Positions 4,935-22,426 of a stretch of DNA of 26,546 nt are shown here, in pieces (position 1 is the stretch's first letter; the number at the start of each line of letters is the position of its first letter). The stretch spans positions 1-26,546 of the forward strand of contig NZ_JAYKGW010000001.1 in NCBI RefSeq assembly GCF_035285525.1. The letters are read 5' to 3'. The notes under the pieces are model-generated. The model was not told the origin of the DNA, ran no database searches, and saw nothing but the letters and a program-made list of their open reading frames with translations. The position numbers and the translations under genes were made by a program. The DNA comes from Okeania sp. (GTDB lineage Bacteria; Cyanobacteriota; Cyanobacteriia; Cyanobacteriales; Microcoleaceae).

Positions 4935-5048
4935 ATATCATGTCCGGTAGCATCGAAAGCGTGTATAAAATTAAGGTGAAAATGAGATAAAACCTTTTAC
5001 CTTCAACATAGCTGCTTTCTGCCTTTTCCACCAAAGTCTAATATAAAC
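4935..5048 (-). mobile_element. MITE family G copy (end TTATATCATGTCCGG), inverted relative to the copy at 7087-7214; far end truncated where a family A MITE is inserted
   Basis: Aligns by eye to the reverse complement of 7087-7214. Shared blocks are atatcatgtccg-tag-atcg, gcgtgtataaaatyaaggtgaaaat and ttctgcctt. Confidence 0.55.
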
Positions 5049-5137
5049 AGGACTTACACAAAGGTACTATGTATAGATTTAAAAAACTATTGCGGAAGGG
5101 TTTTTGAGGCTATATGTAGCGTCTCTGCGTAAGTCCT
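5049..5137. mobile_element. MITE family A (TIR AGGACTTACGCA / TGCGTAAGTCCT), about 90 bp
   Basis: aggacttacacaaaggtactat...aaaaaactattgc...gtctctgcgtaagtcct. Same family as 1364-1468, 7518-7612, 22249-22338 and 25377-25460. Many solo ends (gcgtaagtcct) are scattered elsewhere. Confidence 0.75.
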
Positions 5138-5728
5138 AATAAAATCCGGTTGAATAGGGTTTGCTGAAAAAGTCTTTTAGTAGCGGGGAGGAGCCAGAAG
5201 CCAGAAGCCAGAATCCAGGAAGAATAGCAGTTATAAAGGAATTAGCTAGAAAAATTGTCTCTTAATTTTTCTCAAGAACAAAACTTTTTCTGTTAACTTT
5301 TTCACCTATTTGACCTAAAAGCTGATACTTTTTCCCGACATAAAATTGCTAAAAAGTTAGTTTGTCTGTCAATACTTTCATGTTTCCATACGCCAGCCCT
5401 AAATACTCGTTATATAGTTGTCGGAGATGGGGAGATGGGGAGATTGAAGTGTAGAAAAAATTATGAACATATACAGCAGTCGAAGCAAAGGTTAAGACAG
5501 TTCAAAAGCTGAAAACTCAGACAACGCCAGATTCTTCCTTCTTTCTTCTACTATATACTTGTAACCGGATTCTATATAATTAGGGTTTGCGCTCAAAAGT
5601 CTCTATTTTAGGGGTAGGAGTCAGGAGGGGGATGCAGAAGGGAATATTGGTTCAAAACAAAAAGGTTTTTTCTCACTGATTGTTTGGAGATGATATGATT
5701 CCTGGATAATACAGCAGTTTTTATTTCG

Positions 5729-5818
5729 GTAGACCACAGTAGGGACGCCCTTATGCAACGTCCCTACGAGATTTTGGTTATGGCTCCGGTGGTTCATCAA
5801 GAGTGAAAAGCGCTGTAG
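5729..5818 (+). repeat. Dispersed repeat family E: hairpin GTAGRGAC...GTCYCTAC plus a conserved 49-nt tail
   Basis: The 49-nt tail agattttggttatggctccggtggttcatcaagagtgaaaagcgctgta is identical in the copy at 16405-16493. A diverged copy lies at 23139-23214. Hairpin-only relatives occur near 13030, 17943, 18590 and 25783. Confidence 0.75.
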
Positions 5819-5992
5819 GTACTAGGAAGATAAAAAAATATCTGACAGACTAGAAAATCTTTACCGATTCTTTACATTCTCTAACTATAACTATATTTGT
5901 GAGGCTAAAAGTTCAGCTTTAAATATACATAAATAGGACAGCTTTTACTGTTAGCCAAGCAAAAATGAACATATTATTATTGGAGAAAAAAA

Positions 5993-7075
5993 ATGCCATC
6001 AGATTTTGACACAGAACTTGAGTTAGGTACTGATATTGACAATTCTGACTTTCCTTTAACTCCAGAAACAATTGTATCCTATCGGGCAAAAATTGATGAT
6101 GATGATGATGAGGACGATGAGGACGATGAGGACGATGATGAGGACGATGATGAGGACGATGATGAGGACGATGATGAGGACGATGATGATGAGGACGATG
6201 ATGAGGACGATGACGAGGACGATGATGAGGACGATGAGGACGATGATGAGGACGATGAGGACGATGATGAGGACGATGATGATGAGGACGATGATGAGGA
6301 CGATGAGGACGATGATGAGGACGATGACGAGGACGATGATGATGAGGACGATGATGAAGACGATGATGATAACAATGTGATTGAGGGGACTGACCAAAAT
6401 GACTCACTGGTTGGTACAAATAATGACGACTTAATCAATGGTCTTGAAGGCGATGATACAGTTACAGGTAAGAGTGGCAATGATGAGATATTTGGTGGTC
6501 CTGGTAGCGATCGCTTGATTGGTAATGGTGGTGATGACGAACTCCAAGGTGGTCTCGGTAATGACGAACTCTTAGGTGGTCGAGGTAACGACGAAATTTG
6601 GGGTGATAATGGTAATGACCAACTCCGAGGTGGTCGTGGTCATGACGAACTTTTAGGTGGTCGAGGTAACGACAAAATTTGGGGTGATAATGGTAATGAC
6701 GAATTAATCGGTGGTCGTGGTAATGACGAATTAATCGGTGGTCGAGGCAATGATACCCTCACAGGTGGTCGTGGTAATGACGAATTAATCGGTGGTCAGG
6801 GTAATGACGAACTCCGAGGTGGTCAGGACGATGATATCCTCACAGGTGGTAGCGGTAATGATACCTTTGTCCTGGAGGTGGGTCAAGGGACAGACACTAT
6901 TCGTGATTTCAATGTGGGTCAAGATTTCATTGGTTTGGTAGGTTTCAGCTTTGACGAGTTAGATATTAGTACCTCTGAAGGCAATACTATAATTGAGTTT
7001 GGTACTGAAACTATAGCTATTCTTAATGGAGTTGATGCCAGCACTCTAACTGAGAGTTCTTTTGAGATTATCTAA
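5993..7075 (+). CDS. Hemolysin-type (RTX) calcium-binding repeat protein with a 92-residue poly-Asp/Glu tract
   Basis: 360 aa. GGAG lies 7 nt upstream of the ATG. Residues about 35-126 are exclusively D and E. About 16 nonapeptide GGxGxDxL(x) repeats follow (GGRGNDELIGGRGNDTLTGG...). The C-terminus carries a TFVLEVGQGTDTIRDFNVGQDFIGL module typical of RTX proteins. Confidence 0.85.
   Translation: MPSDFDTELELGTDIDNSDFPLTPETIVSYRAKIDDDDDEDDEDDEDDDEDDDEDDDEDDDEDDDDEDDDEDDDEDDDEDDEDDDEDDEDDDEDDDDEDDDEDDEDDDEDDDEDDDDEDDDEDDDDNNVIEGTDQNDSLVGTNNDDLINGLEGDDTVTGKSGNDEIFGGPGSDRLIGNGGDDELQGGLGNDELLGGRGNDEIWGDNGNDQLRGGRGHDELLGGRGNDKIWGDNGNDELIGGRGNDELIGGRGNDTLTGGRGNDELIGGQGNDELRGGQDDDILTGGSGNDTFVLEVGQGTDTIRDFNVGQDFIGLVGFSFDELDISTSEGNTIIEFGTETIAILNGVDASTLTESSFEII
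6095..6370 (+). repeat. Imperfect trinucleotide/9-15 nt microsatellite, (GAG GAC GAT[GAT]0-2)n, encoding 70 Asp + 22 Glu
   Basis: Read directly from the sequence. There are 22 units, each starting with GAG (one GAA) followed by GAC and then one to three GAT (one GAC). All six reading frames are open across it, which creates spurious ORFs. Confidence 0.95.
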
Positions 7076-7452: not shown

Positions 7453-7815
7453 TAGACATCTCCAAAAATGAAAAATCAAATCATATCATATCAAATCCGC
7501 TTAATTGCAAAAATATCACGACTTACGCAAAGGTACTATATGTATTGTATAGTTAAAAAACTATTGTACAATAGTTTTAAGCACTATATCTAGGGTCGCT
7601 GCGTAAGTCCTGAAATATGATATATGTTTGTAATTTAAGAAATTACTTCAATCCCCCCATCCCCCCATCATCCCATCCCCCCATCTCCCCATCTCCTCCA
7701 ACTATATAATAACTATTCAACCGGATTTGATATCAATTCTTATCCATAAATTATCAATTCTTTCTTCCTGTTACCAGTTAAGTGTTACCTGTCCCCTCTT
7801 TTCTGGAGATGTCTA
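7453..7815. mobile_element. MITE family C (TAGACATCTCCAAAAA ... TTTCTGGAGATGTCTA) with a nested family A MITE (7518-7612) and a C-rich heptamer array (about 7655-7700)
   Basis: The terminal inverted repeats are readable at both ends. The internal ttcttcctgttacc...cccctctttt matches the 113-bp copy at 16181-16293. The nested element is bounded by cgacttacgca and gcgtaagtcct. Confidence 0.6.
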
Positions 7816-7930: not shown

Positions 7931-10900
7931 TCAGGGGTGCGCAGAGATTGCTTCCTGTCGTCGCAATGACAATTGTTCAACTGGATTTGATATAACGCTC
8001 TTTTTTGAATTAGAAGAAAGATTTTCGTAAAAATCTCTCTCCTTTTCTTCATAACAATATTCCACTGCTCCCAATGCTTTGAGGCTGGATTTTTGGGCAT
8101 TGTTTAATCCTGTGACTCCAGTAATGTTAGCATTTTCATAAGGTCTGGATACTCTCAGGGTTTTGATACACTTTCCTGTTTTAATGTTCCAGAGTTTAAT
8201 TGTTCCGTCAGCGCTACTGCTGGCAAGAATGTTACCGTTGGGGTGGAATGCTACTGCTAATACCCAACTCTGGTGTCCGCTCAAAGTGGCGTATAGTCTG
8301 TGGGTGTTAACATTCCATAAGCGGACAGTGTTGTTCTCTCCTCCACTTGCTAATAGTTGACTGTCTGGACTGAAAGCAATTGAATAAGTCCATGCTTGTT
8401 GACCTTCAAAAACGGCGAGGCATTCTTGGGTAGTAATATTCCACAAGCGGACTGTTGTATCATGGCTGCTAGTTGCTAACAGTTTGCCATCAGAACTGAA
8501 GGTAACTGACATAATCTCTCCTTGATGTCCTTGAAAACTGCTGAGATTTTGATTTGTCTCAATATCCCACAATTGAAGAATAGGCTCAACTCCACCAACA
8601 GCTATTTTCTTACTATCTGGGCTGATGGCAATTGTGTAAACTTTTAATTTACAGTGATTTGGTGAAGTTTTCCGTTCCTGCTTTGTCTTGATATCCCAGA
8701 ATCTCAAAGAGCAAACGTCTCCAGCACTAACGAATAAGCTATCGTCAGGAGTAAAAGCAATAGAATGCACTTGATCTGTATATCCGCTTAAAGTTGCCAA
8801 ACATTCACTGGTAATCACATTCCATAACTTAACTGTAAAATCGAAACTTCCACTAGCTAGAGTTTGACCATCAGGACTAAAAGCAACTGATTGCACACGC
8901 TCCTGATGTTTGGGGAAAGTTGCTACTACTTTTCCCTCTTTTAGATTCCAAAGTCTGACAGCACAGTCATCGCTACCACTAGCTAAAGTCTTCCCATCAG
9001 GACTAAAAGCAATTGAGCGAATCCAATTTCCCCAACCTTCTAAAGTATTTAAGAGTTTGATATTATCAATATTCTCAATGTTCCATAAATTTACTTTTTT
9101 ATCACTAGCACTACTAGCTAAAATCTTGCCATCAGAACTAAAAGCCACCTGAAATGATCGGGATGTATGTCCTGCTAAAGTCTTCAGTAGTTGGGGGCGA
9201 TCGCTATAACTGACATCCCACAATTTGACAGTGAAATCACCACTACCACTGGCAAGCATTTTTCCATCTGGGGAAAAAACCAGTCCTCTAACATTATTAT
9301 TTCCAGGAATAGTAGCAACCAGGGAAATATTTTTGATATCTCTAATATCCCAAAGTTTAATGGTAAAGTCAAAACTAGCACTTGCCAAAACTTTACCATC
9401 AGGTCTAAAAGCAATTGTTCTGATTCCTTCTTGATGTCCTGATAAGGTAGCTAAACATTTACCATTATTAACATTCCATAGCTTGATATTTCTATCTTTA
9501 CTAGCAGTTGCTAAAATTTTCCCACTTGGACTAAAGACTAATTTGTTGATCCAACTTGTGTGCCCTGGTAAGGTAGCTAGATATTTGCCATTCCTGAGAT
9601 TCCATAATTGGATTTTGCCATCTATACCACAAGTAGCTAAGAGTTGCATATTTGGACTCAAGGCAGTAGCTTTTACGAGTTCAGAATCTATGAGTAAACT
9701 TCTCAAACATTTACTGCTGGGCAAATGCCAAATTTTTACTGTTTTGTCAGCACTAGCGCTAACTAGAGTTTGACCGTCCGGAGAAAATTGTATGCTTCTG
9801 ACTGTATGGGTATGACCTTCCCAAGTCAAAAGTTTTTTACCATCTGCAACTTGCCACAAATGAATTTTGCCAGATTCATCTCCCGTTGCCAAGAGTTTAC
9901 TATCAGAAGTAAAAGTTAACGACCTAACTGTACTCATAGACTCCATAAAAACACAATCAGTCAGATTTGCTTCAGTCAAATTAACATCCTGCAAACTCGC
10001 ACCTACAAAATTAGCTCCCAAAATGACAGTGTGACTCAAATCCCAACGCTCCAAAGCCAGATTATCAGTTTTTACTAGCAATGTCGTTCCATTGCCACCC
10101 AAATAACCAACCTCGTCAACAGTTTTCCCCCGCGTTCCCTCCACAACTTCCCTTAACTGATTACAAATTTGCGCTGGGGTTGTTTTCCCAGAGAGTATGG
10201 ACAACAACAAATCTATAACTGCCTTCGCCAGGGGTATCTCTCCAAAAGTGGAACGCAAACGCTCCCAAGACTCTCTAGAAAAAGTTTTTAGAGGCGCAAT
10301 AGAAATAACCTCCCCTTTAGCATCCACTTCCCGTTGGAAATAATTAGACCAAGTGTATTCCTGAGCTGTTGCCTGGCAATTAACATGAGACTGCGCTGCT
10401 GCCACTTCCATAAAATCTGGAGGCAACACCCCCAACTCGGCAGCAAATTTATAGGCAACAAAAAACTCCAACAACGAACGATGCGCCGGACTATAATCCC
10501 CATCTTCATTGCGAATCAACATTGTCTGACCCATCATGTCGTAATGCCAGTGGTCTAAATCTTTTTTTTCTCGCACTTCTGATTCAAACAAGCGACGAAT
10601 GCGGTCAGGAAACTCCCGATAGTTGAGACTCATCTTGTTGTTAGATAACATTTCCCAAGAAAGTTCGCAGAGAAAATACAACTTATCTGCTATAGAAGTA
10701 AAAGTGCGCTTTTGCTTGATATCTCGTGCCATCTTGTGTTTCACTGCATAGAGATAAATCCGCGCCAAATCTATCGCTTTCCCTGCTTCAATGTCTGGCA
10801 GCGCCTCCAGAATCAACTCGCTCATCACCGGACGTCTCGCTAAATCTAATAATTGAGGATCGCCCATCACCTTTTCCACTGTCGCGGGTTCAGTCTGAAA

Positions 10901-12238
10901 CGAAAGCACCCGACGAATTTGGTCGTCGTTAAATTTCTGTAGTTCCAACACTTCAAACTGGGGAGGTTCCCCAGTCAAGTTAGCTACAGAAGCTTGCAAC
11001 TCGGCATTCAATAAAGCCAGACCTTCTTTGGCTTCTGGGAAATGCTCTGTGCGACAAGTGAGAATCACCTTAGCTCCTGGAACTACTGTTTGCGCTAACT
11101 CCCAAAAATTATTAATCATCCTTTGCCGATCCACCTTAGCTGCCATTTCGTCGAAACCGTCAAAAATCACCAACAACTTACCCATGCGGTTGAGGAGTTC
11201 AAAAGCAGAATAACCAGGCAGGGGAATTTCATGTTGGCGGAAAAAGAACTCGGAAAAGAGAGACTCCATATTAACTGCCCTAGCATAATCTCGCAACAAA
11301 ATAATTAGAGGCAAGCGGGGACGTTCCACTCCTCGCTTTTTCGCATCCAAATAGCGCTGCAACTGTTTCCAAGCGTAATGGAAAACAAACCAAGTTTTAC
11401 CAGTACCGAACTCTCCCAAAACTGACAAGTGTTTTTTAGCTGGATCGCTTTGCCATTGGTCAATATAACCATCTATCCAGCCGTCTTCTGACCCGTAATA
11501 ACTGACTCCTATTTTTTGTTTAGTATTGGGATCAATTTCTGCTTTGCTACAAGCGAGGGGTACATATTTGACATCTATTCCCCGCTGTTCGACCTGTTCT
11601 TCTAACCACTGACAATAACCACTGAAGTCTGCTTCTTGGTCTATCAGTTCGTCGAAGGTGTAGCAAAATAAATTTTGGTTTTCTGGTTGTTTCGCTTCAT
11701 CGCGAGCTGCTTTACTAATTCGACGGACTGCAACTAACCAACCTTCATTGGTTTTTTCAGTGGTGACGGACTGACGCAAAGCCTTGAGATCGTAAATTTC
11801 TGCTTCACCTTCTAATCCTCGAATTAGGATGCGATCATGTCCGCGACGAGTTTTAATTTTGATCGTCCATTCAAACCACCTTTTACCTTTTTTATTCTCA
11901 CGGTGATAGTCTGTAAATTGATATCCGAGGATTTCAAACCATTCTCTCATCTGTTGGGGGAGCAGGAAGTTGTGGTGATCGCTATTTTGTTTAATTTCGG
12001 CTTCCACAACTCCTCTAAAATTAGCTCTGGAGACTCGTTGCTGAAATAAGTTTGCTAGTATTTTCCATAATTTAGCACCTTCTTGTCTGATATATACTCG
12101 ATCAAAATTTGTTTTTGCTGATATTTCTGCGTATCTTTCCCCCTTCCAAGCTAGGGAAAAAATATTCTTTTGCAAGTCGCTGAGATTTTTTTCTTTTAGT
12201 TGATTATTGATAAACTCTAATGCTTCTTCTGGTGTCAT
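7931..12238 (-). CDS. STAND-class NACHT NTPase with N-terminal HTH-like module, restriction-endonuclease-like module, short pentapeptide-repeat stretch and 14 WD40 repeats (bacterial NLR-like protein)
   Basis: 1435 aa. Residues 1-80 ([43 protein letters not shown]) resemble the HTH module found at the N-termini of cyanobacterial STAND/WD40 proteins. Residues about 95-185 ([12 protein letters not shown]...[22 protein letters not shown]...[17 protein letters not shown]) have an Mrr-like layout. Walker A is GEFGTGKTW (about nt 11393-11416) and Walker B is [11 protein letters not shown] (about nt 11143-11178). Pentapeptide-like stretch: [25 protein letters not shown]. There are 14 repeats ending in LW[NDQH][ILV], enough for two 7-bladed propellers. 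The canonical end [23 protein letters not shown] is followed by a 42-aa tail. Confidence 0.85.
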
Positions 12239-12282: not shown

Positions 12283-12487
12283 ATAGCTCCCAAATCGGTT
12301 CTATAAAATTAGGTGCGGAGATGGGAAGATGGAGCTATTTTTCTACCTTTTTCCCTATTCCATTTCTCTCACTCCTGACTTCCCCTCCTGGGAGGGGTTA
12401 GGGGTGGGTTAACTCCTGACTCCTGTCTCCTTTGGCAAAAACCAACACCTTTGCCAACATAGCGTTAGGGGTTCTATATAGAAGCCC
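12283..12487. mobile_element. MITE family B copy (about 205 bp), immediately upstream of the NACHT-WD40 start
   Basis: tatagctcccaaatcggttctataaaattaggtgcggagatggg...tttttccctattccatttctctcactcctgacttc...tttggcaaaaacc...gcgttaggggttctata. Collinear with 18215-18406. Confidence 0.65.
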
Positions 12488-13249: not shown

Positions 13250-13484
13250 GATTTTGCGTAAGTCCTGATATCAAATCATAGACTTGTATGTAGGGACAAA
13301 GGATAGTTCACCTAAATCAAGTAATTTGGCGTAAGTCTTGCTACTAACAAAAACTAACTTTTTATTTCAACAAAAACTAACTTCCAGTCATAACATTTCC
13401 TAACCAAAAGCCTCTAAGAGCAAAATTAAGATAGAAGTATCGAGCGAATCGATAGTCAACCAAAAATTAATTGGAAGCCTGAAA

Positions 13485-15173
13485 ATGGAAATAACATTTG
13501 ACCCCAGAATTGAGTTTATTGAGCCGATAGAAGAAATAGATGAGAGGACAGTCTTTTCCTTGGAAGATAAATATTTTACTCTTGTCCCTGAAGTTATTGA
13601 GCGTGTCAAAGAAACAGTTGAGTCAGGAGAAATCTTTATAGATCCTACATGGCCTGGTAGTCCTTCTATACCAAAACCTAAATCGGTTTCAGGAAAAGAA
13701 TATTCGAATAATGCAGATAAAGATACTAACGGAATACCAGATCCTACTCAAAATCTACTTTGGTTTGGAAATGGCTTAACGAATAATGCATTTGATTATG
13801 GGATTGGAGCACAGGTAGATGCTATATCAAATTCGGGAGATGCTCTCTTCTCTTCAGTTGTTAGAAATCAAAGTAACCTGGTGTTTTCTACAACTTTTAG
13901 TAACAAAATCTACTATGAAACTCCTTCTGGAGGGAAAGGAGTTTGGGCATCCCCTAGTCAAATAGATAAACCAAATGAGCCAGTAGGCGATCCTGGAGTG
14001 CTTGATGTAGATGGTTTAGAATTATGGGGTCCTGTAGATGGTAATCGCTTCTCTGTATATGGAGATCAAAATGCAGCTGTCTACGATTACGATTATGTTA
14101 GCGGAAATATTACCGCGCTATATTCTCAGGTAGACATTGCTCAAGCTATTGGTGTATCCCCTACAGCTGCGGACAAAGTTAACATTGATGCTATGATGAC
14201 ATCTGGGGAGAAAATTATATTTAGTATCGATCCTATTGAGGAGTTGGGACTTGATGGAGGTGAAATTTGGTTTTGGGACGGGAGTACAGCAACGGCTAGT
14301 TTCCTCAAACATGGAGGTCATGTTTGGGATACTGAGTTTGATGTGATGAAGACTTTTGGCACAGTTTCAGAAAATATTAATGCTCTAGAATCTGTTGGTC
14401 AATACTTTTTACCATGGCTAACAGCGGATTATTTGGTGCCTGTGGAAGTTGATGAGAAGTTATTATTGTCAGATCCGCTTCCTCTTGGTGGTGTTGATCC
14501 TGATATTATAAAAGTTCCAGGAGGAATAAAAATCAACGGTACAAGAGGTAATGACAAACTCATTGGTGATAGTGGTGATGATACCCTTAATGGTGGTCGT
14601 GGTAATGACTACTTAAATGGTAAGAGTGGCGATGATACCCTTAATGGCGGTAATGGCAATGATACCCTTAATGGTGGTAATGGCGATGATACCCTTAATG
14701 GTGGTCGTGGTAATGACAAACTTCTTGGTAAATCAGGTGACGATTTGCTCCTAGGTTACTCCGGTAAAGATACCTTGCAAGGAGATGCTGGTAACGATAC
14801 CCTTACAGGTGGTGGAGGTCCTGACAAATTTCTCTTTAATACCAATAAGACATTTAAGACAAATGATCTAGGTATAGATGAAATCACTGATTTTTCACAA
14901 AAACAGGGAGATGTGATTATCCTAGATCTTACAACTTTCACTGCTATCAACAGTACTCCGGGAACTGGATTCAGTATTGCTGATGAATTTGCTACAGTTA
15001 CTGATGACTCACTGGCAGCAACATCTGATGCCGTAATTGTCTATAATAGTGACAATGGTAATTTGTTCTATAATCCCAATGGTAGTGACTCAGGTTTCGG
15101 TACTGGTGGTCAGTTTGCAACTTTGACAAATACTCCATCCTTAGAAGCAGGAGATTTCTTCCTCAGAAATTAA
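13485..15173 (+). CDS. RTX-type calcium-binding protein with a large uncharacterised N-terminal domain
   Basis: 562 aa. Residues about 350-450 hold about 11 nonapeptide repeats (GGRGNDYLNGKSGDDTLNGGNGNDTLNGGNGDD...; nt about 14540-14830). The C-terminal module is DEITDFSQKQGDVIILDL...NGNLFYNPNGSDSGFGTGGQFATL...AGDFFL, as in cyanobacterial hemolysin-type Ca-binding proteins. I do not recognise the first roughly 340 aa. Confidence 0.8.
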   Translation: MEITFDPRIEFIEPIEEIDERTVFSLEDKYFTLVPEVIERVKETVESGEIFIDPTWPGSPSIPKPKSVSGKEYSNNADKDTNGIPDPTQNLLWFGNGLTNNAFDYGIGAQVDAISNSGDALFSSVVRNQSNLVFSTTFSNKIYYETPSGGKGVWASPSQIDKPNEPVGDPGVLDVDGLELWGPVDGNRFSVYGDQNAAVYDYDYVSGNITALYSQVDIAQAIGVSPTAADKVNIDAMMTSGEKIIFSIDPIEELGLDGGEIWFWDGSTATASFLKHGGHVWDTEFDVMKTFGTVSENINALESVGQYFLPWLTADYLVPVEVDEKLLLSDPLPLGGVDPDIIKVPGGIKINGTRGNDKLIGDSGDDTLNGGRGNDYLNGKSGDDTLNGGNGNDTLNGGNGDDTLNGGRGNDKLLGKSGDDLLLGYSGKDTLQGDAGNDTLTGGGGPDKFLFNTNKTFKTNDLGIDEITDFSQKQGDVIILDLTTFTAINSTPGTGFSIADEFATVTDDSLAATSDAVIVYNSDNGNLFYNPNGSDSGFGTGGQFATLTNTPSLEAGDFFLRN

Positions 15174-15335: not shown

Positions 15336-16154
15336 ATGGTTTTAACTGCCCAACAATTAGAGGCAATAATGCCTGATGCCACTCAATTAGAAAGCGACGA
15401 ACCCCCCATGGAAAGCTCTCAACACTATACCCAACTTATGTTGCTAGTTATTTGTCTGGAATGGTTGTGGCGCAATAGAAATGATTACTTTATTGGTGCT
15501 AACTTGACTATTTATTACAGTCGCCAATATCTGAAAACTCGTGACTTTCGCAGACCAGACTTTTTCTTAGTCAAGGATACCCAGAAGCAACCCCGGAAGT
15601 CATGGGTAGTGTGGGAGGAAAACGGTAAATATCCCAATTTAATAATAGAGTTACTATCAGACTCTACCGCTATAGTAGATCGCAACTTCAAAAAACAGTT
15701 ATATCAAAACAACTTCCGCACCCCAGAGTATTTTTGGTTTGACCCGGAAACTATGGAGTTTATGGGATTTCGCTTACAACAAAATGGTTATGCAGAAATT
15801 CAACCGAATGATCGAGGTTGGGGTTGGAGTCAAGAATTAGAATTATATTTAGGAGTAGATGAAGGTCAACTTCGTTATTTTACTGCTAATGGTGAACGAG
15901 TGCCAACTCCCCAGGAGGATGCGATACAAGAAAAATTGCACGCTCAAGTAGCTCACTCACAAGCCCAAAATGCTTTTGCTGATGGTGAAGAAATTGGGGA
16001 ACAACGAGGCCGAGAAATTGGCCAACAAGAAGCCAAACAAGAAGCAGTCCCTCGATTACTCAAATTAGGATTGAGTTTAGCGGTAATTGCTGAATCTTTA
16101 GATTTGCCTTTGTCGGTTGTTCAACAAATAGCTAATTCTGCTAATAATAATTAG
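15336..16154 (+). CDS. Uma2-family (DUF820, PD-(D/E)xK-like) endonuclease with a Gln/Glu-rich C-terminal extension
   Basis: 272 aa. The Uma2-typical segments are SSQHYTQLMLLVICLEWLW, RPDFFLVKD, PNLIIELLSDST...DRNFKKQLYQNNFRTPEYFWFDP. The tail ...GEQRGREIGQQEAKQEAVPRLLKLGLSLAVIAESLDLPLSVVQQI is common in cyanobacterial members of the family. Confidence 0.75.
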   Translation: MVLTAQQLEAIMPDATQLESDEPPMESSQHYTQLMLLVICLEWLWRNRNDYFIGANLTIYYSRQYLKTRDFRRPDFFLVKDTQKQPRKSWVVWEENGKYPNLIIELLSDSTAIVDRNFKKQLYQNNFRTPEYFWFDPETMEFMGFRLQQNGYAEIQPNDRGWGWSQELELYLGVDEGQLRYFTANGERVPTPQEDAIQEKLHAQVAHSQAQNAFADGEEIGEQRGREIGQQEAKQEAVPRLLKLGLSLAVIAESLDLPLSVVQQIANSANNN

Positions 16155-16180: not shown

Positions 16181-16293
16181 TAGACATCTCCGGAAAAGAG
16201 GGAACAGGGAACACAACCGCGCTTAACTGGGAAGAGTAATTGATGCTTTCGTATGGGAGAATTGATTCTATTTTTTATTTCTGGAGATGTCTA
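16181..16293. mobile_element. MITE family C, compact 113-bp copy (TAGACATCTCCGGAAA ... TTTCTGGAGATGTCTA)
   Basis: Clear 15-16 nt terminal inverted repeats. Starts 27 nt after the Uma2 stop. Its first 3 nt overlap a 25-nt duplication of the Uma2 3' end. Confidence 0.75.
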
Positions 16294-16404
16294 ATACCTA
16301 ATTTTACTAATAATTGAGTTCTAGACTAACTTGACTACAGAATATTTTTGAGGGATAATTCAATTTTATTTGTAGTCAAGTTAATTTACAACGGTTTTCC
16401 TAAA

Positions 16405-16493
16405 CGGTAAACCACTGTAGAGACCTTGCATGCAACGTCTCTACAAGATTTTGGTTATGGCTCCGGTGGTTCATCAAGAGTGAAAAGCGCTGT
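16405..16493 (+). repeat. Dispersed repeat family E copy (hairpin GTAGAGAC...GTCTCTAC plus the conserved 49-nt tail)
   Basis: The tail is identical to that of 5729-5818. The hairpin carries paired substitutions relative to that copy. Confidence 0.75.
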
Positions 16494-16588
16494 AAAAAAA
16501 TTAGACAGAAAGTTGAAGCAATAAATCTACTATTATAGCGTTTTTTACAAAGAAAGGTAAACTACAAAACTCTTTCCTTCTTTCTTTC

Positions 16589-17863
16589 TTAAATCATATT
16601 TTTAGCTTTAGCTTGAATCAATAAATCTGAATCATCCACAAACAACTCAGCAGTTTGATTATCGCCTAATTCTTTCAATGCCAATAAACAAGCATATTTT
16701 AAGTCAAAAATTCTTGTATTACTGATAGTTTCTTTAAGTAAAGGTATCGCTTGCTCATCTCCCAAATTTCCCAGAGCAAGTGCAGCAGCACCACGAGACT
16801 TCTGAAACTGAGGCGCTGTATTATGGAGTGCTTCTACCAACAGATCGTAAGCATCAACATATTTGAGCCAACCTAATAGTTTCACTACATGATAGTGAGC
16901 GCCATAATCATTATGAGCGCTTTCAGCAAAAGTTGCTATTAATGCTGCACCTGCAACTTCCGGGTAAACGTCTAAAAGAGTTTTGCTAGCTAAATAACAC
17001 CTGCCAAAATCTGTACTGTATAACTCGTTAATCACAAATTCTAAAGCTGGAGTTTGATCGTATTCGTGAACTAATTCTAAATCATGGGGACGATCGCAAA
17101 TCACTAAATCTAAAAAGGGTTCAATTTTAGCAAATTTCATCTCACCTTTGGGAATACCTGCTGCTGCTAATAGTCTAATTGCTCGGAGACGAAAAACCAT
17201 CGAAACAGGACATTTAGCAATATTCGGAATAGACTGATAATATTTAGCATCAATCAAGTCTTGAATACAAGCACGTCTAGCATTAACACTGGAATGCTCT
17301 AAAAATTTCACTACTTTTGTCATTTGGGAATAATCTCCCGTTAAACGACAAACAGTAGCGATCGCTGCACTAGCAATAGGTTCGTCATCAGATTCGATAA
17401 ATTGCTGAATTTTGGTTATTGCAGGTTTATAGTCAAATTTTGCCAATACCTGAATAATTAAACGATAAGTTTGATTTGGTTTTTCCAGCAACTGGGCAAT
17501 TTCTGCCATAATTTCTTGGTCTTCTGTTCCTAGTTCCCCTATTGCCCAGACAGCATTTTCTACAGTATAACAGTCTGCATCACTTAAACAAGCTCGAATT
17601 GTCGGTAATGCTGATTTCACATTCAAACGCCCCAAGGTTTCGATCGCTTTACGTCTAGCAATTTTATGTTCTAAGACAGGATTAGTGTCTTTTATGGTTT
17701 TGATTAAAGCATTAATAGAGCGATCGCTGGGAAAATTCACTAAATGACTTGCTGCTACATAACGTTCTGATTTATTTTCTAATTCTTCTAGAGGTGTTTC
17801 TAATAAAGAAATTGCTTTTTCTTCAGTTAATCCAGGAAATATATTGAAAAAACGCTTATCCAT
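16589..17863 (-). CDS. cpeY: Phycoerythrobilin lyase, HEAT-repeat E/F-type, CpeY-like
   Basis: 424 aa. Matches as I remember them: MDKRFFN...YVAASHLVNFPSDRSINALI, IRACLSDADCYTVENAVWAIGELGT, TDFGRCYLASKT, NDYGAHYHVVKLLGWLK, PQFQKSR. The size agrees with the roughly 429 aa reported for Fremyella CpeY. Lies in a phycoerythrin gene neighbourhood. Confidence 0.75.
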   Translation of the reverse strand: MDKRFFNIFPGLTEEKAISLLETPLEELENKSERYVAASHLVNFPSDRSINALIKTIKDTNPVLEHKIARRKAIETLGRLNVKSALPTIRACLSDADCYTVENAVWAIGELGTEDQEIMAEIAQLLEKPNQTYRLIIQVLAKFDYKPAITKIQQFIESDDEPIASAAIATVCRLTGDYSQMTKVVKFLEHSSVNARRACIQDLIDAKYYQSIPNIAKCPVSMVFRLRAIRLLAAAGIPKGEMKFAKIEPFLDLVICDRPHDLELVHEYDQTPALEFVINELYSTDFGRCYLASKTLLDVYPEVAGAALIATFAESAHNDYGAHYHVVKLLGWLKYVDAYDLLVEALHNTAPQFQKSRGAAALALGNLGDEQAIPLLKETISNTRIFDLKYACLLALKELGDNQTAELFVDDSDLLIQAKAKNMI

Positions 17864-18074
17864 TTTTTTGGGGTGTTAATTATAATCAACAATTACAGAA
17901 GTTTTCAAGTCAATGAACCACATAAAAACAAATGATCATCTCGTAGGGACGTTGCATACAACCTCCCTACTTTGTAGTCTACTGAAATGAAAAGCGTTGT
18001 AATTTCTTGAATAGATTATATCAGGACTTACGCAGAAACTTAGTTTATCAACAAAATTTCGTGGTTTGAACTGA

Positions 18075-18112
18075 ACCCAGAAACCCGGTTTCTCCTAGAA
18101 ACCGGGTTCCTC
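18075..18112. repeat. Hairpin repeat family D copy
   Basis: cccagaaacccggtttctcctagaaaccgggttcctcc. Confidence 0.65.
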
Positions 18113-18214
18113 CCGTGTAAGTCCTAATATAAAGGTTTGGGACAAAAATACACAGGACTGACGCAGCGACCTTAGATATAGCGCTTAAAACTATTGCGCA
18201 ATAGTTTTTTGACT

Positions 18215-18406
18215 CTATAGAACCCCTAAACGGATCTCTAAAATTAGTTGGGGAGATGGGGAGATGGGGAGTAGGGAGTGGGTGAGATGGGGAGATGGTG
18301 AATATAAAGCTCTAATTCTAGCTTTTTCCCTATTCTATTTCTCTCACTCCTGACTTCTTTGGCAAAAAAACACACCTGTGTAAAGATACGCTTAGGGGTT
18401 CTATAT
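18215..18406. mobile_element. MITE family B copy with a GGGGAGA/T heptamer array
   Basis: ctatagaacccctaaacggatctctaaaattagttggggagatggggagatggggagtagggag...tttttccctattctatttctctcactcctgacttctttggcaaaaaaacac...cgcttaggggttctata. The left flank is a truncated family A element. Confidence 0.65.
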
Positions 18407-18733
18407 TAGAGTTGTTAGGAATTAAGCAAAAAAAATGGCTAAAACCTTTATCAGTAAAGGCTTACAGATATTTGAGATGTCTAAATCACTAAAACTCTTG
18501 CATAGCAAGCTTTTGAGTATTTTAAATTTTTATTTCCCAACAACTCTATTATATATAGTACCTTTGCGTAAGTCATGATACATACTAAAGTAGAGACATT
18601 CCATGGAATGTCTCTACTATTTTTCACCAAATATTTTTGAATCAGGACTTATGCAGAACTATCATATCTTTTCTCTAAGAATTTGCGTAAGTCTTGTTAA
18701 TGTGGGTAGAAAACCTGAAGGTATTTCAGTAAA

Positions 18734-18997
18734 TTAGAGAATACCTATATTCGCCAACCCTAAAATCACACCAAATCCGATGACATGGCCTAAACTGGTA
18801 GTTGCTAATAAAGCAGGATAACCCATTCCACCAAACATTTCTGGCATAGGTAATGCAGGTCCAGCACTAGGAGTAGCCATAGTGGACTTACCTACAGCGA
18901 TCGCTAATATATTGCAAACAATCATTACTATTCCCACTAGAGGACTCCACTCAGGGGTATGGGGAACTGCAGCAGCAAGTGTTATTAAATGAATCAT
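18734..18997 (-). CDS. psaK: Photosystem I reaction centre subunit PsaK
   Basis: 87 aa with two transmembrane helices. PsaK-typical segments are PEWSPLVGIVMIVCNILAI and FGGMGYPALLATTSLGHVIGFGVILGL. Confidence 0.85.
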   Translation of the reverse strand: MIHLITLAAAVPHTPEWSPLVGIVMIVCNILAIAVGKSTMATPSAGPALPMPEMFGGMGYPALLATTSLGHVIGFGVILGLANIGIL

Positions 18998-19575
18998 GTT
19001 AATTTCTCCTTAATTGATTAAAACAGTAATTCAAACTGGATAAACTGATTTTTTTTTGTGAATATTTTAAATCTTTTTAACAAACATAAGAATATTAAAA
19101 AGAATCTGTCTTGAAAGCAACAATAGCACAGAAATATTCTGATAACTTTAATGCTCAATGCAACAGCAATAACACCAAAAATCCTCGTCTTTAAATACTC
19201 CCTTTGCTTGAGCAAAAGGAGATGTCAATTAATTTAATATTTTCTCAAACTTTGTCAAGTAATTAAGTAGTAAAAGTAATAAAAATTAACTTTACAAAAT
19301 TTACATATTATTTAGTGAAGTTTTATTAATTTGTTTCTGATAAATAAAATTTTGAACCATTACATTATATATTGATTCTGTGAGTAATCAAGCTTTTTGA
19401 GAATTAAAGAGAATACCTTAATTATTTAATTAATTTCATGTCCTAGTATCTACTTTTTAAAGTATTCAGGACTGATGCGGGCAAACGTAAAAAGCCCGTT
19501 TTTTCATAGGTATCTATTGTTTGTTAAAAACAACTTTAATCTAAATTAAACCATAAAGTCTTTAGGAAAAAAACA

Positions 19576-20334
19576 ATGGGAAACTTAACCACAGTCGAGC
19601 CACTAGAACTCCGCCCCAATGCTTCTGAAGGAGAACTAGAGCAAATCATCAAAGCTGTCTACAAGCAAGTATTAGGAAATCAGCATCTGATGGAAGGCGA
19701 TCGCCTCTCTAGTGCTGAATCTAAACTCTGCAATGGTGATATTACAGTCCGTGAGTTTGTGAGAAGTGTAGCTCAATCAAGTCTTTATCAGAAACTATTT
19801 TTTGAATCCTCATCTCAGTACCGCTTTATTGAGTTAAACTTTAAGCATTTGTTAGGTCGTGCTCCTCAAGCACAGGAAGAAATTTCTGAACACGTTCAGA
19901 CTTATAATCAAAAAGGGTACGAAGTTGAAATTAACTCCTACATAGATAGTGAGGAGTATATCGAAAGTTTTGGTGATAATGTTGTACCTTATCCCCGTAG
20001 TATCCGTTCAGTTGTTGGACTGAAAAACGAAGTTTTCAACCGCACATTTTCTTTGTTCCGGGGTCCTGCTACCAACGATAGTGATAACCGTGCCAAGTTA
20101 ATAACTTCTATAGCTGCCAACTTACCTACTCCCATTAAGCTTGCTGTAGGTAATGGAGCTTACAGCAATACAGGAAAACGCTTCAAAATTCAGTTTTCTA
20201 GCTCTAAAACTTCTGCTAGACTGAACAAATTTAGCCGTCAGGAATGTGTAGTTAACTACAACCAGATGTCTCAACAAGTTCAAAACATTCATAAGACAGG
20301 TGGAAATATTCTAAGTATTACTGAAGTAGCATAG
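19576..20334 (+). CDS. Phycobilisome rod linker polypeptide, phycoerythrin-associated type (CpeC/D/E family): PBS-linker domain plus C-terminal CpcD-like domain
   Basis: 252 aa. The linker-domain motifs are IIKAVYKQVLGNQHLMEGDRL...ESKLCNGDITVREFVRSVAQSSLYQKLFF...YRFIELNFKHLLGRAP...YNQKGYEVEINSYIDSEEY. The CpcD-like end is KRFKIQFSS...VNYNQMSQQVQNIHKTGGNILSITEV. Assignment to PE rather than PC rods rests on gene context only. Confidence 0.75.
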   Translation: MGNLTTVEPLELRPNASEGELEQIIKAVYKQVLGNQHLMEGDRLSSAESKLCNGDITVREFVRSVAQSSLYQKLFFESSSQYRFIELNFKHLLGRAPQAQEEISEHVQTYNQKGYEVEINSYIDSEEYIESFGDNVVPYPRSIRSVVGLKNEVFNRTFSLFRGPATNDSDNRAKLITSIAANLPTPIKLAVGNGAYSNTGKRFKIQFSSSKTSARLNKFSRQECVVNYNQMSQQVQNIHKTGGNILSITEVA

Positions 20335-20417
20335 TATTTTTCCTTTTTGTTATAAGATACTCCCGATGCTGTATTGTATAAACACTATGGCACGGTTTTT
20401 TTAGTGTATGTTAATAA

Positions 20418-20657
20418 TTAGGGCTTGCTGATTAAATCAGAAAGTATTGAGAGATAAAAGTTTCAGTATCATTTTGTCGAAAAAAGTATAAGGTTTTAGA
20501 TGTCTCAGGTGCAAAAATTCAGCATTTTGGGCTAACTATGGTAAAAAAATGAAGAGGCTATTCTTCTGAACTACCTTCTCCATAATTCCCATTGATTCTG
20601 ACTCCTGATTCCTGACTTCTGGCCTGATTACTCATACTTTCCATAAGCAAGCCCTAA
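20418..20657. mobile_element. MITE family F (TIR TTAGGGCTTGC / GCAAGCCCTAA), 240 bp, ending 28 nt upstream of the HEAT-lyase start codon
   Basis: The ends are ttagggcttgctgattaaatc and actcatactttccataagcaagccctaa. Internal blocks (gcattttgggctaactatggtaaaaaaa, ctgactcctgattcctgac) recur at 21636-21884 and within 25225-26110. Confidence 0.65.
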
Positions 20658-20685
20658 TTAGTTCTCAAATTATTATAATTTTTCC

Positions 20686-21543
20686 ATGTCTCCAGAAGAA
20701 ATAGATAGTTTTCTCACAAAAACTAGACAAGAAGCAATCCAAAAAACTTTTGACATTAATAATAGCCAAAGGTTACAACTGATGGTAGAATGTATGGGTG
20801 ATTCCCGGGGGATGGTCCGCTTAGGTTTTGCCGAAACTCTTGGACAAATTGGCAAACCAGCTACTCCTTTTCTCACTGAAGCTCTCCTAAATCACTCCGA
20901 TCCAGTTGTCCGACGAGCTAGTGCCAAAACTTTGACCCTCATTGCCGATCCAGATACAGTTTCCCCCCTAGTCCATGCTCTACTTAATGATGAAGATACA
21001 GTAGTAAAAGGCTCATCAGCAGGCGCTCTGGCTCGGATAGGAGAACCTGCTGCCCCTGTTTTATTAGAAATTTTAGGCTCTAGAGAACATCCAGAAAGCA
21101 CTAAAGGTCATGCTGCTTGGGCTTTAGCATTTATTGGAGCTGAAGCCAAAGAGCATTTGTATCGGGAGATTAATTCTGAAAAAGTGGCAGTTAGATCTGC
21201 TGTGGTGGGAGCGATCGCTAAAATTGCTCAAGACTCAGGAGAAGAGGAAGCCATCAATATTTTGATAACTGCCCTAGAAGATTCGTCGGAGGAGGTACGG
21301 ATTGAAGCAGCAGCAGTTTTGGGAAATTTAGCTTATAAACCAGCAGTTCCCAATCTAGTTGAATTACTGAATCATCGGACTAGCGGTGAAACTCGCAAGG
21401 CAGCAGCTTTGTCTTTAATGAAAATTCGTTCCCATAGTGCTTTAGAGCCGTTGCGGGGAGCATGGGAACAAGAGTCAGAGGAAGATATTAAGAAAATTAT
21501 CAAATTGGCAATTACTCAATTAGAGAGACAACCTCCTTCTTGA
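20686..21543 (+). CDS. HEAT-repeat E/F-type phycobilin lyase (CpcE/CpeF-like)
   Basis: 285 aa. Shows the repeated PBS-lyase HEAT pattern (VRLGFAETLGQIGKPATPFL; DPVVRRASAKTLTLIADPDTVSPLV; EVRIEAAAVLGNLAYKPAVPNLVELL). Located in the PE cluster next to the linker gene. Chromophore and site specificity cannot be read from the sequence. Confidence 0.65.
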   Translation: MSPEEIDSFLTKTRQEAIQKTFDINNSQRLQLMVECMGDSRGMVRLGFAETLGQIGKPATPFLTEALLNHSDPVVRRASAKTLTLIADPDTVSPLVHALLNDEDTVVKGSSAGALARIGEPAAPVLLEILGSREHPESTKGHAAWALAFIGAEAKEHLYREINSEKVAVRSAVVGAIAKIAQDSGEEEAINILITALEDSSEEVRIEAAAVLGNLAYKPAVPNLVELLNHRTSGETRKAAALSLMKIRSHSALEPLRGAWEQESEEDIKKIIKLAITQLERQPPS

Positions 21544-21546
21544 GCT

Positions 21547-21586
21547 GAGGAGTAGGGGAGTGGGGGAGTAGGGGAGTGGGGGAGTA
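21547..21586 (+). repeat. Tandem octamer array (GGGGAGTR)x5 starting 3 nt after the HEAT-lyase stop
   Basis: gaggagta ggggagtg ggggagta ggggagtg ggggagta. An inverted counterpart lies at 22427-22464. Confidence 0.9.
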
Positions 21587-21635
21587 ATAGAATTATCAAC
21601 AAATACGATATACTCAGTTTCTTGGTAAGTTGATC

Positions 21636-21884
21636 TAGGGCTTGCTGATTAAATATCAAAATCTTGACGAGCTGAAGGTTTTACCCTTTTAAGGTACTAA
21701 TAAAGTACCAGCTTTTAGGTGGTAATGGTACGGTTCCCGAAAAATCATGCATTTTAGGATTTTCGGCAACATAAGGGTAGAAAATCACTCTGATAATTCT
21801 TCTGACTACTTCTTCTATGATTTTCATTCCTGCTGGATTCTGGATTCTACCTCTACCACTCATACTTTTTCAGCAAACCCTCTA
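21636..21884. mobile_element. MITE family F copy (TAGGGCTTGCTGA ... TCAGCAAACCCTCTA), 249 bp, overlapping the 5' end of ORF 21817-22086
   Basis: The ends and the internal ...actcatacttt.. block align with 20418-20657. The first 23 codons of the annotated 89-aa ORF (MIFIPAGFWILPLPLILFQQTLY) lie inside this element. Confidence 0.6.
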
Positions 21885-21885
21885 T

Positions 21886-22218
21886 ACTAAGTCTAAAAAA
21901 TTTCCGATAGAAGAAAGGTATTCTTTAATTGACCAAATTAGACGCTCGTCACGTTCTGTTTGTGCTAATTTGGCTGGAGCTTGGCGAAAACGTAGATATG
22001 AACTAGCTTTTGTTGCTAAATTCAATGACTGTGAAGCAGAAGCAGCGGAAACACAAACTTGGCTTGATTTTGCTGTGAAATGTTGATATTTAGATGCAGA
22101 AACAGGACAAAAACTTTCAAAAAGCTATGATGAAATTATCAGCATTTTAGTCAAAATAATCAATAATCCTTATCCTTGGTTGTTGAAACATCGAGGAGAT
22201 AAAGAAATGAAAAGTTAG
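21886..22218 (+). pseudogene. Four-helix-bundle protein (23S rRNA intervening-sequence protein / Avd-like family), 5'-truncated by a MITE and carrying an in-frame TGA
   Basis: Family-typical segments are KSKKFPIEERYSLIDQIRRSSRSVCANLAGAW...AEAAETQTWLDFAVKC. A TGA follows at 22084-22086. The same frame then continues with YLDAETGQKLSKSYDEIISILVKIINNPYPWLL to the TAG at 22216-22218. The usual first helix is missing. Confidence 0.7.
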
Positions 22219-22248
22219 TTGGTGTTTTTCTCTGATGGTATTACTCTT

Positions 22249-22338: not shown

Positions 22339-22426
22339 GACTCTGTATTATTAGAAAGCTCCAGAAAGTGTTCTGAAACCTTTATAATGCTGTTCCAAAA
22401 TCAGTATTTTTGGAGATGTCTATTTT

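Follow-up and report, generated by a model that had tools for sequence, protein, structure and literature searches.

Bacterial NACHT (bNACHT) proteins have been catalogued on a large scale: Kibby et al. sorted ~20,000 of them into 25 clades (bioRxiv 10.1101/2022.07.19.500537; Cell 2023). Clade 11, in Table S1 of that work, includes the architectures 'NA-iREase1+NACHT+Pentapeptide+BetaPropeller', 'NNH5+NA-iREase1+...', 'EAD4+NA-iREase1+...' and 'CASPASE+iREase+...', as well as 'HTH+NA-iREase1+NACHT+BetaPropeller', represented by Anabaena WP_157087485.1 (bioRxiv 10.1101/2022.07.19.500537). Cyanobacterial Apaf-1-like WD40 proteins of the STAND class (signal transduction ATPases with numerous domains) that carry caspase N-termini have also been reported, in a 2026 survey of STAND receptors (Nature 2026, PMC13581612). 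Here we analyse a gene of this kind in a 26,546-nucleotide stretch of Okeania sp. DNA (contig NZ_JAYKGW010000001.1, positions 1 to 26,546; hereafter the window). A first interpretation of this DNA made from its letters alone (the sequence-only reading) had described the gene as a NOD-like receptor (NLR)-like switch with a nuclease-like effector or DNA-sensing module, and as the strongest candidate for a novel system in the window. We find that its product is, with near certainty, a bacterial NLR-related NACHT protein of the NA-iREase1-NACHT group. The nuclease-like module appears to be a constant, non-catalytic part of the core, and the variable output probably lies N-terminal to it.

The gene is one intact, ATG-initiated open reading frame (ORF) of 1435 codons at 7931..12238 on the minus strand, the strand of all its parts given below, and encodes a 1435-aa protein. 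We scanned the protein with Pfam, both entire and without its repeats, and searched it for motifs. Every part that the sequence-only reading had named was recovered, in the order it had given, with match statistics far beyond chance, and the peptide strings it had quoted all occur in the protein. We then compared domain order and coordinates with a clade-11 protein of the same genus, NEN90591.1 from Okeania sp. SIO3H1, for which NA-iREase1 is placed at residues 89-203, NACHT at 271-601 and BetaPropeller at 736-1367 (Table S1, bioRxiv 10.1101/2022.07.19.500537). The two layouts are essentially the same. Domain order is shared with NEN90591.1 and WP_157087485.1, coordinates are nearly identical, and the families are the same (NA-iREase1, NACHT, Pentapeptide and WD40), as is the variable N-terminal slot that can hold NNH5, EAD4, a caspase or a helix-turn-helix (HTH) module. 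Compared by architecture, the query shows no difference from clade 11 other than a 41-aa read-through tail. Since the clade itself is defined by a tree of the NACHT module, we infer membership from the architecture and from the Okeania entry with matching coordinates. With its intact ORF, its orthologue and its ratio of nonsynonymous to synonymous divergence (dN/dS, see below), the gene thus appears to encode an NLR-like STAND nucleoside triphosphatase (NTPase) of clade-11 architecture, a typical member of a known family rather than a new system. Its nuclease-like module is a curated Pfam family and both the architecture and a co-linear Okeania protein were already in Table S1, so the claim of novelty has to be given up.

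We surveyed the N-termini of the best 120 homologues. The iREase-NACHT core was common to all of them, at 59-77% identity, with the iREase upstream of NACHT in each. The segment in front of the core varied: 102 sequences formed one large cluster of ~200-aa N-termini with NNH5 or DUF4062, five carried a caspase, four a ~100-aa XRE-like segment, three (the query included) the HTH type of the query, and one EAD4; in the remaining sequences the N-terminus was truncated. DUF4062 has been found experimentally to be a TIR-like NADase, and it occupies the CARD-equivalent position in human NWD1 and TEP1 (bioRxiv 10.64898/2026.05.01.722283). Because the iREase is fixed in all of the best 120 homologues while the segment N-terminal to it varies, this comparison of sequences shows the extreme N-terminus as a swappable effector/adaptor slot and the iREase as invariant core machinery, not an effector. 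The proposal that the nuclease-like module is the effector is contradicted by this arrangement. The caspase, TIR-like NADase and EAD4 N-termini of the paralogues nevertheless bear out the conflict flavour that the sequence-only reading had attributed to the family. The NA-iREase1-NACHT family is greatly expanded in filamentous cyanobacteria.

The iREase module (aa 93-200; 11639..11962) is placed directly N-terminal to NACHT, which starts at residue 271. It matched PF22722 (NA-iREase1, 'NACHT-associated inactive Restriction Endonuclease 1') over the full model, positions 1-106 of 106, with 134.1 bits against a cut-off of 27 (E 2.3e-39). Mrr_cat (PF04471) remained below threshold, at 19.8 bits against a cut-off of 21, in a partial match to model positions 45-102 of 115. 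An AF2 model built from a 58-row alignment (predicted local distance difference test score, pLDDT, 94.8; predicted template modelling score, pTM, 0.86) displayed the alpha-beta-beta-beta-alpha-beta core topology of PD-(D/E)xK enzymes. Its best Foldseek matches were the restriction endonucleases (REases) MspJI, EcoT38I and AspBHI together with AF1548 and Can2 (query-based TM-score, TMq, ~0.5; probability 0.97-1.0). Thus, the segment that the sequence-only reading had likened to Mrr has an REase fold in the model, and the absence of such a fold, which that reading had named as a refutation, was not observed. Chains of the RPB5 N-terminal domain, a non-catalytic REase fold, were also recurrent matches (probability 0.97-1.0). 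A PDB sequence-profile search with the iREase alignment gave nothing significant, the top match being RPB5 at E 0.22; the likeness to RPB5 is one of fold, with no demonstrable sequence homology and an unrelated biological context. The iREase family is compact, with 181 clusters at E <= 1e-3 in a search of 1.84 billion cluster representatives.

We counted lysines in a register-independent way over columns 131-148, which span strand 3 (133-142) and its flanks, the site of the (D/E)xK lysine. Across 123 family members Lys reached at most 8% in each of these columns, and the query has none there. Because no Lys is conserved in this region, the canonical catalytic Lys is missing from the module whatever the register, matching the curated name 'inactive'. 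The sequence-only reading had proposed an ExE in place of ExK. The loss of the lysine, and with it the catalytic alteration, is upheld by the census; the particular register, E143-G-E145, was not confirmed. The Mrr_cat match starts at residue 132 and, read against the model consensus, would presumably put (E/Q)xK at R140-G-L142. Three acidic residues are kept across the 123 members, E123 (71% E, 10% D), D135 (62%) and E145 (82%), and W100, W167, D196 and the arginines R131, R132, R136, R140, R172 and R173 are also conserved. E109, conserved elsewhere in the family, is lost in the query subclade, being T in the query and in the orthologue from Okeania sp. SIO3I5 and A or D in the others. The dN/dS of the module was 0.13-0.19 against three relatives; because of these low values we read it as maintained, not decaying.

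An experimentally characterised counterpart of this arrangement is found in another clade. bNACHT25 of E. coli ECOR11 (WP_001702659.1; clade 6) consists of an active Mrr-like REase, NACHT/nSTAND4 and NCH1. Like the query, it has an REase fold N-terminal to a NACHT-type NTPase and is a single-gene NLR-like switch. When we aligned the iREase family with the active REase of bNACHT25 by hhalign, the beta4-alpha3 segment alone was aligned, and there the two are recognisably similar (NEIWVVTNSSISNNAQEKI). The REase of bNACHT25 is, however, the effector (D48A abolishes toxicity), whereas the query has a fold without the catalytic Lys that stands behind a separate N-terminal module; moreover, bNACHT25 carries a short NCH1 sensor in place of the double WD40 propeller.

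The N-terminal slot of the query (aa 1-92; 11963..12238) holds a five-helix HTH of LuxR/sigma-70 region-4-like type. The precomputed annotation of an identical protein gives PF26355 (HTH_VMAP-M9), unmarked, which stands for E <= 1e-5. The AF2 model, built from a 7-row alignment, has five helices and a pLDDT of 91.6. Most of its top 50 Foldseek matches were NarL, GerE, DosR, RcsB, CviR and region 4 of extracytoplasmic function (ECF) sigma factors, several of them solved on DNA; with NarL (1je8) it superposed over 63 columns with a root-mean-square deviation of 1.7 A and a target-based TM-score (TMt) of 0.77. A PDB sequence-profile search with the HTH alignment gave nothing significant. The HTH is the fastest-evolving and least conserved domain of the protein (54-65% identity, dN/dS 0.31-0.44).

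A homology search with the 92-aa HTH alone returned no candidates, and a search with a 14-sequence HTH alignment returned three short proteins only. Two short proteins, P0267 (91 aa) and P0268 (167 aa), are made of the HTH module alone. Beyond the NLR family, the alignment search met the module in two contexts only. At locus L083 (2417-6416), HTH_VMAP-M9 stands at the head of an AAA_35 STAND-like ATPase that has a Peripla_BP_6/ANF_receptor sensor and is spread over three overlapping gene calls, possibly through a frameshift. At locus L082 of Symploca (8001-8914), the module is followed by a single WD40 fragment of 132 aa, and the whole resembles an NLR gene that has collapsed.

Between the iREase and NACHT lies a conserved linker or pre-NACHT segment (aa 201-270; 11429..11638; 69-86% identity to close relatives, dN/dS 0.08-0.09). 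The nucleotide-binding domain follows (aa 271-445; 10904..11428). It matched NACHT (PF05729) above the gathering threshold, at 36.2 bits against a cut-off of 26.7 (E 7e-9, aa ~272-444). The motif scan placed Walker A, GEFGTGKT, at aa 275-282 and Walker B at aa 355-364, where D-G-F-D-E fits the NACHT signature D[GAS]hDE; Walker A GxxxxGK[ST] and this NACHT-specific Walker B are the motifs defined by Kibby et al. (bioRxiv 10.1101/2022.07.19.500537). The domain is the most constrained region of the protein, with 87-95% identity and a dN/dS of 0.03-0.06. Residues 446-720 (10079..10903; 76-86% identity to homologues) would comprise the helical/winged-helix part of the NACHT module and a spacer, and in the co-linear Okeania protein NACHT reaches residue ~601 (Table S1, bioRxiv 10.1101/2022.07.19.500537).

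A short pentapeptide-repeat stretch (aa 721-765; 9944..10078) joins the NACHT module to the propellers. It matched PF00805 at aa ~733-764 with E 6e-6, and the order Pentapeptide+BetaPropeller is found across clade 11 (Table S1, bioRxiv 10.1101/2022.07.19.500537). Repeat dissection resolved 14 tandem WD40 units over aa 766-1351, which we assume to split 7+7; Pfam counted 13 WD40 stretches and added multiple whole-propeller family matches. Repeats 1-7 would form a first propeller (aa 766-1053; 9080..9943; dN/dS ~0.30) and repeats 8-14 a second (aa 1054-1365; 8144..9079; dN/dS ~0.31), each matched by Pfam WD40 or beta-propeller families and each a putative sensor; the propellers as a whole evolve at a dN/dS of ~0.3. 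An NLR-like STAND protein with a repeat sensor, as the sequence-only reading had recognised, is therefore what the NACHT match above its cut-off and the 14 repeats describe. The repeats share a mean pairwise identity of 36% with a maximum of 56%, and we rejected concerted evolution of the fungal kind, as there is no recent homogenisation. Fungal HET-E/HET-D/NWD NLRs resemble the query in combining NACHT with WD40 repeats, in their expanded paralogous families and in a swappable N-terminal effector. They differ in having highly similar, internally recombining WD repeats and neither iREase nor HTH.

A scan of one genome per species yielded 424 relatives. Residues 1-1393 were matched at 67-82% identity only by Okeania spp., by two unclassified cyanobacterial metagenome-assembled genomes (L005 and L009) and by one Arthrospira, whereas the Nostocales copies were ~53-55% identical and mostly lacked the N-terminal module. 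The Nostocales setting in which the sequence-only reading had placed the gene accordingly has to be exchanged for Okeania, a genus of Oscillatoriales, where the best full-length relatives and a syntenic locus are found. That locus, L002 of Okeania sp. SIO3I5, shares with the window iPGM (89% aa identity), the TPR protein (90%), the NLR (82%), Uma2 (83%) and an HEAT/PBS-lyase-like gene (89%); the two NLR genes are 85.6% identical over 4186 nt. Proteins identical to the NLR, TPR and Uma2 products of the window were found only on contigs of 1-4.6 kb from one sample, SRR19514071. The dN/dS of the whole gene was 0.19-0.23, consistent with a gene that is maintained under purifying selection.

Divergence is not uniform along the gene. 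Compared with the relative L008, synonymous divergence is saturated in parts of the N-terminal half (not estimable for the iREase and linker) and ~0.30 in the propellers. The nearest relative also differs by domain: propeller 1 is nearer L008 (83% aa identity) than the syntenic L002 (78%), and the iREase shows the opposite (69% L008, 82% L002). Because of these two features, the mosaic divergence suggests domain-level recombination among paralogues.

The C-terminus carries one peculiarity of the window. All ten full-length relatives end in '...SLKALGAVE(x)' followed by TGA, and a conserved tail (aa 1366-1394; 8057..8143), identified by alignment with the 10 relatives and by translation, leads to this common endpoint. 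In the window 41 extra residues (CYEEKERDF...AISAHP; aa 1395-1435 and stop, 7931..8056) follow, with no counterpart elsewhere. Protein and DNA alignments placed the change at 8054-8056, where the ancestral TGA stop is TGT in the window (GAATATTGA in relatives versus GAATATTGT in the window). The tail thus comes from a recent, window-specific loss of a single stop codon. We considered whether this odd C-terminus marks a decaying pseudogene and rejected the idea: the full-length alignment is free of frameshifts, dN/dS is 0.21, and the tail amounts to a single stop-codon change.

Other genes of the window that neighbour the NLR are iPGM, TPR, phycobilisome components, two RTX genes and one Uma2 gene. 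Across 11 loci with the HTH-type NLR, the NLR alone was common to all, and copies occurred in at least three unrelated contexts within Okeania alone. Because the NLR alone is shared, in such different surroundings, it appears to be a one-gene unit and not a fixed core gene, and a multi-gene system is unlikely; the one-gene character had been anticipated by the sequence-only reading. We rejected a multi-gene operon or system on the same count, the recurrent Uma2 being very abundant in cyanobacteria and the loci not independent.

Uma2 (PF05685) genes do recur beside HTH-type NLRs. The first kilobase downstream contains seven matches, a density of 0.92 per 10 kb, where most other distance bins have ~0-0.2. 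The exception is the bin 2.5-5 kb downstream, with 19 matches, which we assume to come from related Microcoleus loci sharing one flank. The Uma2 genes by NLR copies are those at 5616-6413, 13394-14098, 14233-15006, 16181-16747 and 17318-18124 of L002, 14605-15171 of L003, 14596-15162 of L009, 14763-15515 of L004 and 15336-16154 of the window. Four Uma2 copies of L002, on both sides of its NLR, are 86-91% identical in nucleotide sequence to the single Uma2 of the window. This recurrence may be due to chance or to a recombination hotspot; the loci, with ~4 contexts between them, lack independence, and Uma2 genes abound in cyanobacteria. At 15682-15895 of L002, beside a Uma2 gene and 2.7 kb downstream of the intact NLR, lies a 214-nt fragment 90% identical to the 3' end of the NLR (window 8049-8262), probably what is left of a second NLR copy that had this Uma2 downstream of it.

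The two RTX (HemolysinCabind) genes, at window 5993-7075 and 13485-15173, flank the NLR; one of them, RTX1, encodes a run of ~110 residues that is almost wholly Asp and Glu. They have no match in the syntenic SIO3I5 locus, and because of this the spacers around the NLR appear to have been remodelled between species, with RTX genes here and four Uma2 copies plus the NLR 3' fragment in L002. The sequence-only reading had spoken of a MITE-saturated (miniature inverted-repeat transposable element) accessory block. Short dispersed repeats are indeed present (30-100 bp, 77-93% identity, both orientations), for example at window 5048-5139, 7514-7612, 12311-12382, 12770-12871/13148-13249, 18154-18221, 22247-22340 and 25369-25474. 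They are found in most intergenic spacers of the whole window, however, including the phycobilisome cluster, and thus look like a genome-wide feature and not the mark of an accessory island. The NLR, Uma2 and the outer flanks are syntenic in the sister species, only the two RTX genes being without a match, and the notion of an accessory block is only partly borne out.

Just past Uma2, at window 16589-24791, lies a phycobilisome-related cluster of three HEAT/PBS-lyase-like genes, a phycobilisome linker with a CpcD domain and a phycobiliprotein; the NLR is thus near core photosynthetic antenna genes. The start of the window is a tandem duplication, positions 1-90 being 91% identical to 73-162.

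Outside the bNACHT catalogue, other groups of STAND proteins resemble the query in part. Apaf-1, NWD1, TEP1 and the cyanobacterial Apaf-1-like STANDs (PMC13581612; bioRxiv 10.64898/2026.05.01.722283) share an N-terminal output, a STAND NTPase and two WD40 propellers with it, and its paralogues have a caspase or DUF4062 where CARD or DUF4062 sits in proteins of this type. Unlike the query, they have no inactive REase between output and NTPase; the output of the query is an HTH, and Apaf-1 has an NB-ARC NTPase, not NACHT. MalT, AfsR (a Streptomyces antibiotic regulatory protein, SARP) and the large ATP-binding LuxR-family (LAL) regulators can be likened to the query by layout and fold class: STAND NTPase, repeat sensor and HTH output. 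MalT has a LuxR-type HTH, the fold class matched by the HTH of the query. These regulators belong to other STAND clades (MalT, AP-ATPase/SARP), however, with TPR/SUPR sensors and no iREase, and in MalT the HTH is C-terminal. Avs/AVAST proteins (with Mrr/Cap4-type nucleases) are, like the query, one-gene STANDs with repeat domains; in them the repeats sense phage proteins and oligomerisation activates an N-terminal REase fold. They differ in having an active nuclease, TPR-like sensors and an NTPase that is not NACHT, and no Avs model of PADLOC matched the query.

Taken together, these results lead us to propose the following model, whose ligand, oligomerisation step, binding to DNA and part in immunity are drawn by analogy with Apaf-1, bNACHT/Avs and MalT/AfsR. 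At rest, the two seven-bladed WD40 propellers and the pentapeptide stretch would hold the NACHT module closed; autoinhibition of this Apaf-1-like WD40 type has been described (PMC13581612; bioRxiv 10.64898/2026.05.01.722283). Binding of a ligand to the propellers, most plausibly a phage- or stress-derived protein, would release NACHT, whose intact P-loop would bind or exchange NTP, and the protein would oligomerise. The function of bNACHT proteins depends on Walker A, and gain-of-function mutants of the winged-helix domain are known (Kibby et al., bioRxiv 10.1101/2022.07.19.500537). Oligomerisation would bring the N-terminal modules together. The slot is filled in paralogues by a caspase, by DUF4062 (a TIR-like NADase) or by an adaptor (EAD4, NNH5). 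Because in the query it holds an HTH of LuxR/sigma-region-4 type, the output here would most likely be cooperative DNA binding, which would act on transcription or tether DNA rather than kill the cell directly through a nuclease. The iREase would act as a non-catalytic structural or binding element: a dimerisation or oligomerisation scaffold, a nucleic-acid- or phosphate-binding surface (given its many conserved arginines) or an interface with the nucleotide-binding domain. We read it as a core element and not an effector because it is without the catalytic Lys, accompanies NACHT in all close homologues no matter which effector they carry, and evolves under purifying selection. A DNA-sensing role, one half of what the sequence-only reading had suggested for this module, is retained here as one possible function. 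We hold this model as a whole, an NLR-like switch with HTH-mediated cooperative DNA binding and a non-catalytic iREase, to be the probable one; the identity of the protein is near-certain, and our confidence in the output is moderate.

Several observations weigh against this model or loosen parts of it. The bNACHT genes recorded as tested in the available part of Table S2 came from Klebsiella, E. coli and Vibrio, and none of those is of clade 11 or cyanobacterial (bioRxiv 10.1101/2022.07.19.500537). Because no clade-11 gene is among them, as far as that table goes, anti-phage function and oligomerisation are extrapolated here. The locus is not an obvious defence island, and PADLOC (PADLOC-DB v2) run on the query found no bNACHT, Avs or other model matching the NACHT part, its sole match being HEAT-ARM_XIII through the WD40 repeats. 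The conserved acidic residues E123, D135 and E145 and the arginines of the iREase leave room for a non-canonical activity. DNA binding by the HTH is itself less than certain: in local Pfam, aa 1-92 matched Sigma70_r4_2 alone and below threshold (E 0.23; 11.6 bits, cut-off 25.7), and the Foldseek E-values were weak, 0.3-1. Such values are usual for helical domains of 60 residues. The fast evolution of the HTH would be expected of an arms-race or adaptor surface no less than of a sequence-specific reader of DNA, and the name VMAP-M9 derives from the variable, non-enzymatic VMAP middle regions, proposed sensors of invaders.

The same observations raise the question of whether HTH_VMAP-M9 is an adaptor that does not bind DNA and, after NACHT oligomerisation, recruits a separate effector or a vWA-MoxR/VMAP system through homotypic or protein contacts, as proposed for EAD/Death-like domains. 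The HTH occupies the slot of EAD4 and NNH5, presumed non-enzymatic adaptors, its Pfam name links it to the VMAP middle regions of vWA-MoxR ternary conflict systems, and its dN/dS is high. Adaptor-type N-termini were explicitly proposed by Kibby et al., who also count transcription-regulatory and DNA-binding domains among the non-enzymatic 'adaptor' outputs of bNACHT proteins (bioRxiv 10.1101/2022.07.19.500537). The short proteins P0267 and P0268 would be candidate partners. However, the HTH model matches canonical DNA-binding HTHs, several solved on DNA, none of the 11 loci offers a conserved neighbour gene as partner, and with L082 an apparent remnant of a collapsed NLR and L083 an AAA_35 ATPase that is probably frameshifted, the short proteins are doubtful as true stand-alone partners. 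We consider a pure adaptor unlikely. The model can also be pushed the other way, to an NLR with a DNA-binding output that would be a bacterial counterpart of CIITA/NLRC5 or of MalT inside an immune NLR family. The dead REase would then be a DNA- or nucleotide-binding clamp or sensor cooperating with the HTH, the oligomer a multivalent DNA platform that switches on a defence or stress regulon or occludes invader DNA, and the Uma2 genes that recur next to HTH-type copies, with their active REase fold, could supply the dead REase with a nuclease partner acting in trans. This is a speculative picture that we offer with low confidence.

We weighed two further explanations. In the scheme of the sequence-only reading, the REase-fold module would be the effector, a non-canonical nuclease, or the DNA sensor of an abortive-infection switch; on activation, DNA would be cut and the cell would die. 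The predicted fold is a true REase fold, the module keeps E123, D135, E145 and many arginines under purifying selection (dN/dS 0.13-0.19), and bNACHT25 provides a validated case of an active Mrr-like REase as effector, its toxicity being rescued by D48A. We nonetheless regard a nuclease effector as very improbable: no Lys is conserved in or around strand 3 in 123 members, Mrr_cat is sub-threshold and the curated family is named 'inactive', the family-conserved E109 is lost in the query and its closest relatives, and the module stays invariant while a caspase or a DUF4062 NADase is added N-terminal to it in paralogues, an addition for which there would be no need were the module the effector. 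Alternatively, the protein could be a housekeeping or developmental STAND transcription regulator of the MalT/AfsR kind, with propellers that sense an endogenous protein or metabolite and no role in conflict. HTH, STAND and repeat sensor together make up the established MalT/AfsR-type layout (AfsR is cited in PMC13581612); the gene is intact, under overall purifying selection and syntenic among ordinary genes in a sister species; PADLOC matched no model to the NACHT part and no defence island is apparent; and the WD repeats, at a mean of 36% identity, lack recent internal homogenisation. Against this, effectors of death or immunity (caspase, TIR-like NADase, EAD4) are found in close paralogues that share this core, the family has undergone massive expansion and occurs in at least three unrelated contexts within Okeania, mosaic divergence suggests recombination between paralogues, and the flanks have been remodelled, with RTX genes in one species and four Uma2 copies in the other. 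Kibby et al. and Kaur et al. tie such expansions to conflict systems of multicellular bacteria. A regulator without any conflict role is thus, in our view, rather unlikely, and we retain the NLR-like switch with a DNA-binding output and a non-catalytic iREase as the best explanation.

The gene adds no new architecture; what it offers is a clean and intact example of the family, kept by purifying selection and comparable with a syntenic orthologue. We found no clade-11 member with an experimental test in the literature. Among the NLR-like expansions of multicellular cyanobacteria clade 11 ranks with the largest, and by architecture no bacterial analogue of Apaf-1/NWD1/TEP1 is closer. If, as proposed here, the nuclease is dead and belongs to the constant core, and the true output is the variable part N-terminal to it, these are the parts that experiments should target. 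Two questions follow for the family: what role an inactive REase plays beside NACHT, perhaps as a scaffold, in clamping DNA or in autoinhibition, and what it would mean for an NLR to have an HTH as its output.

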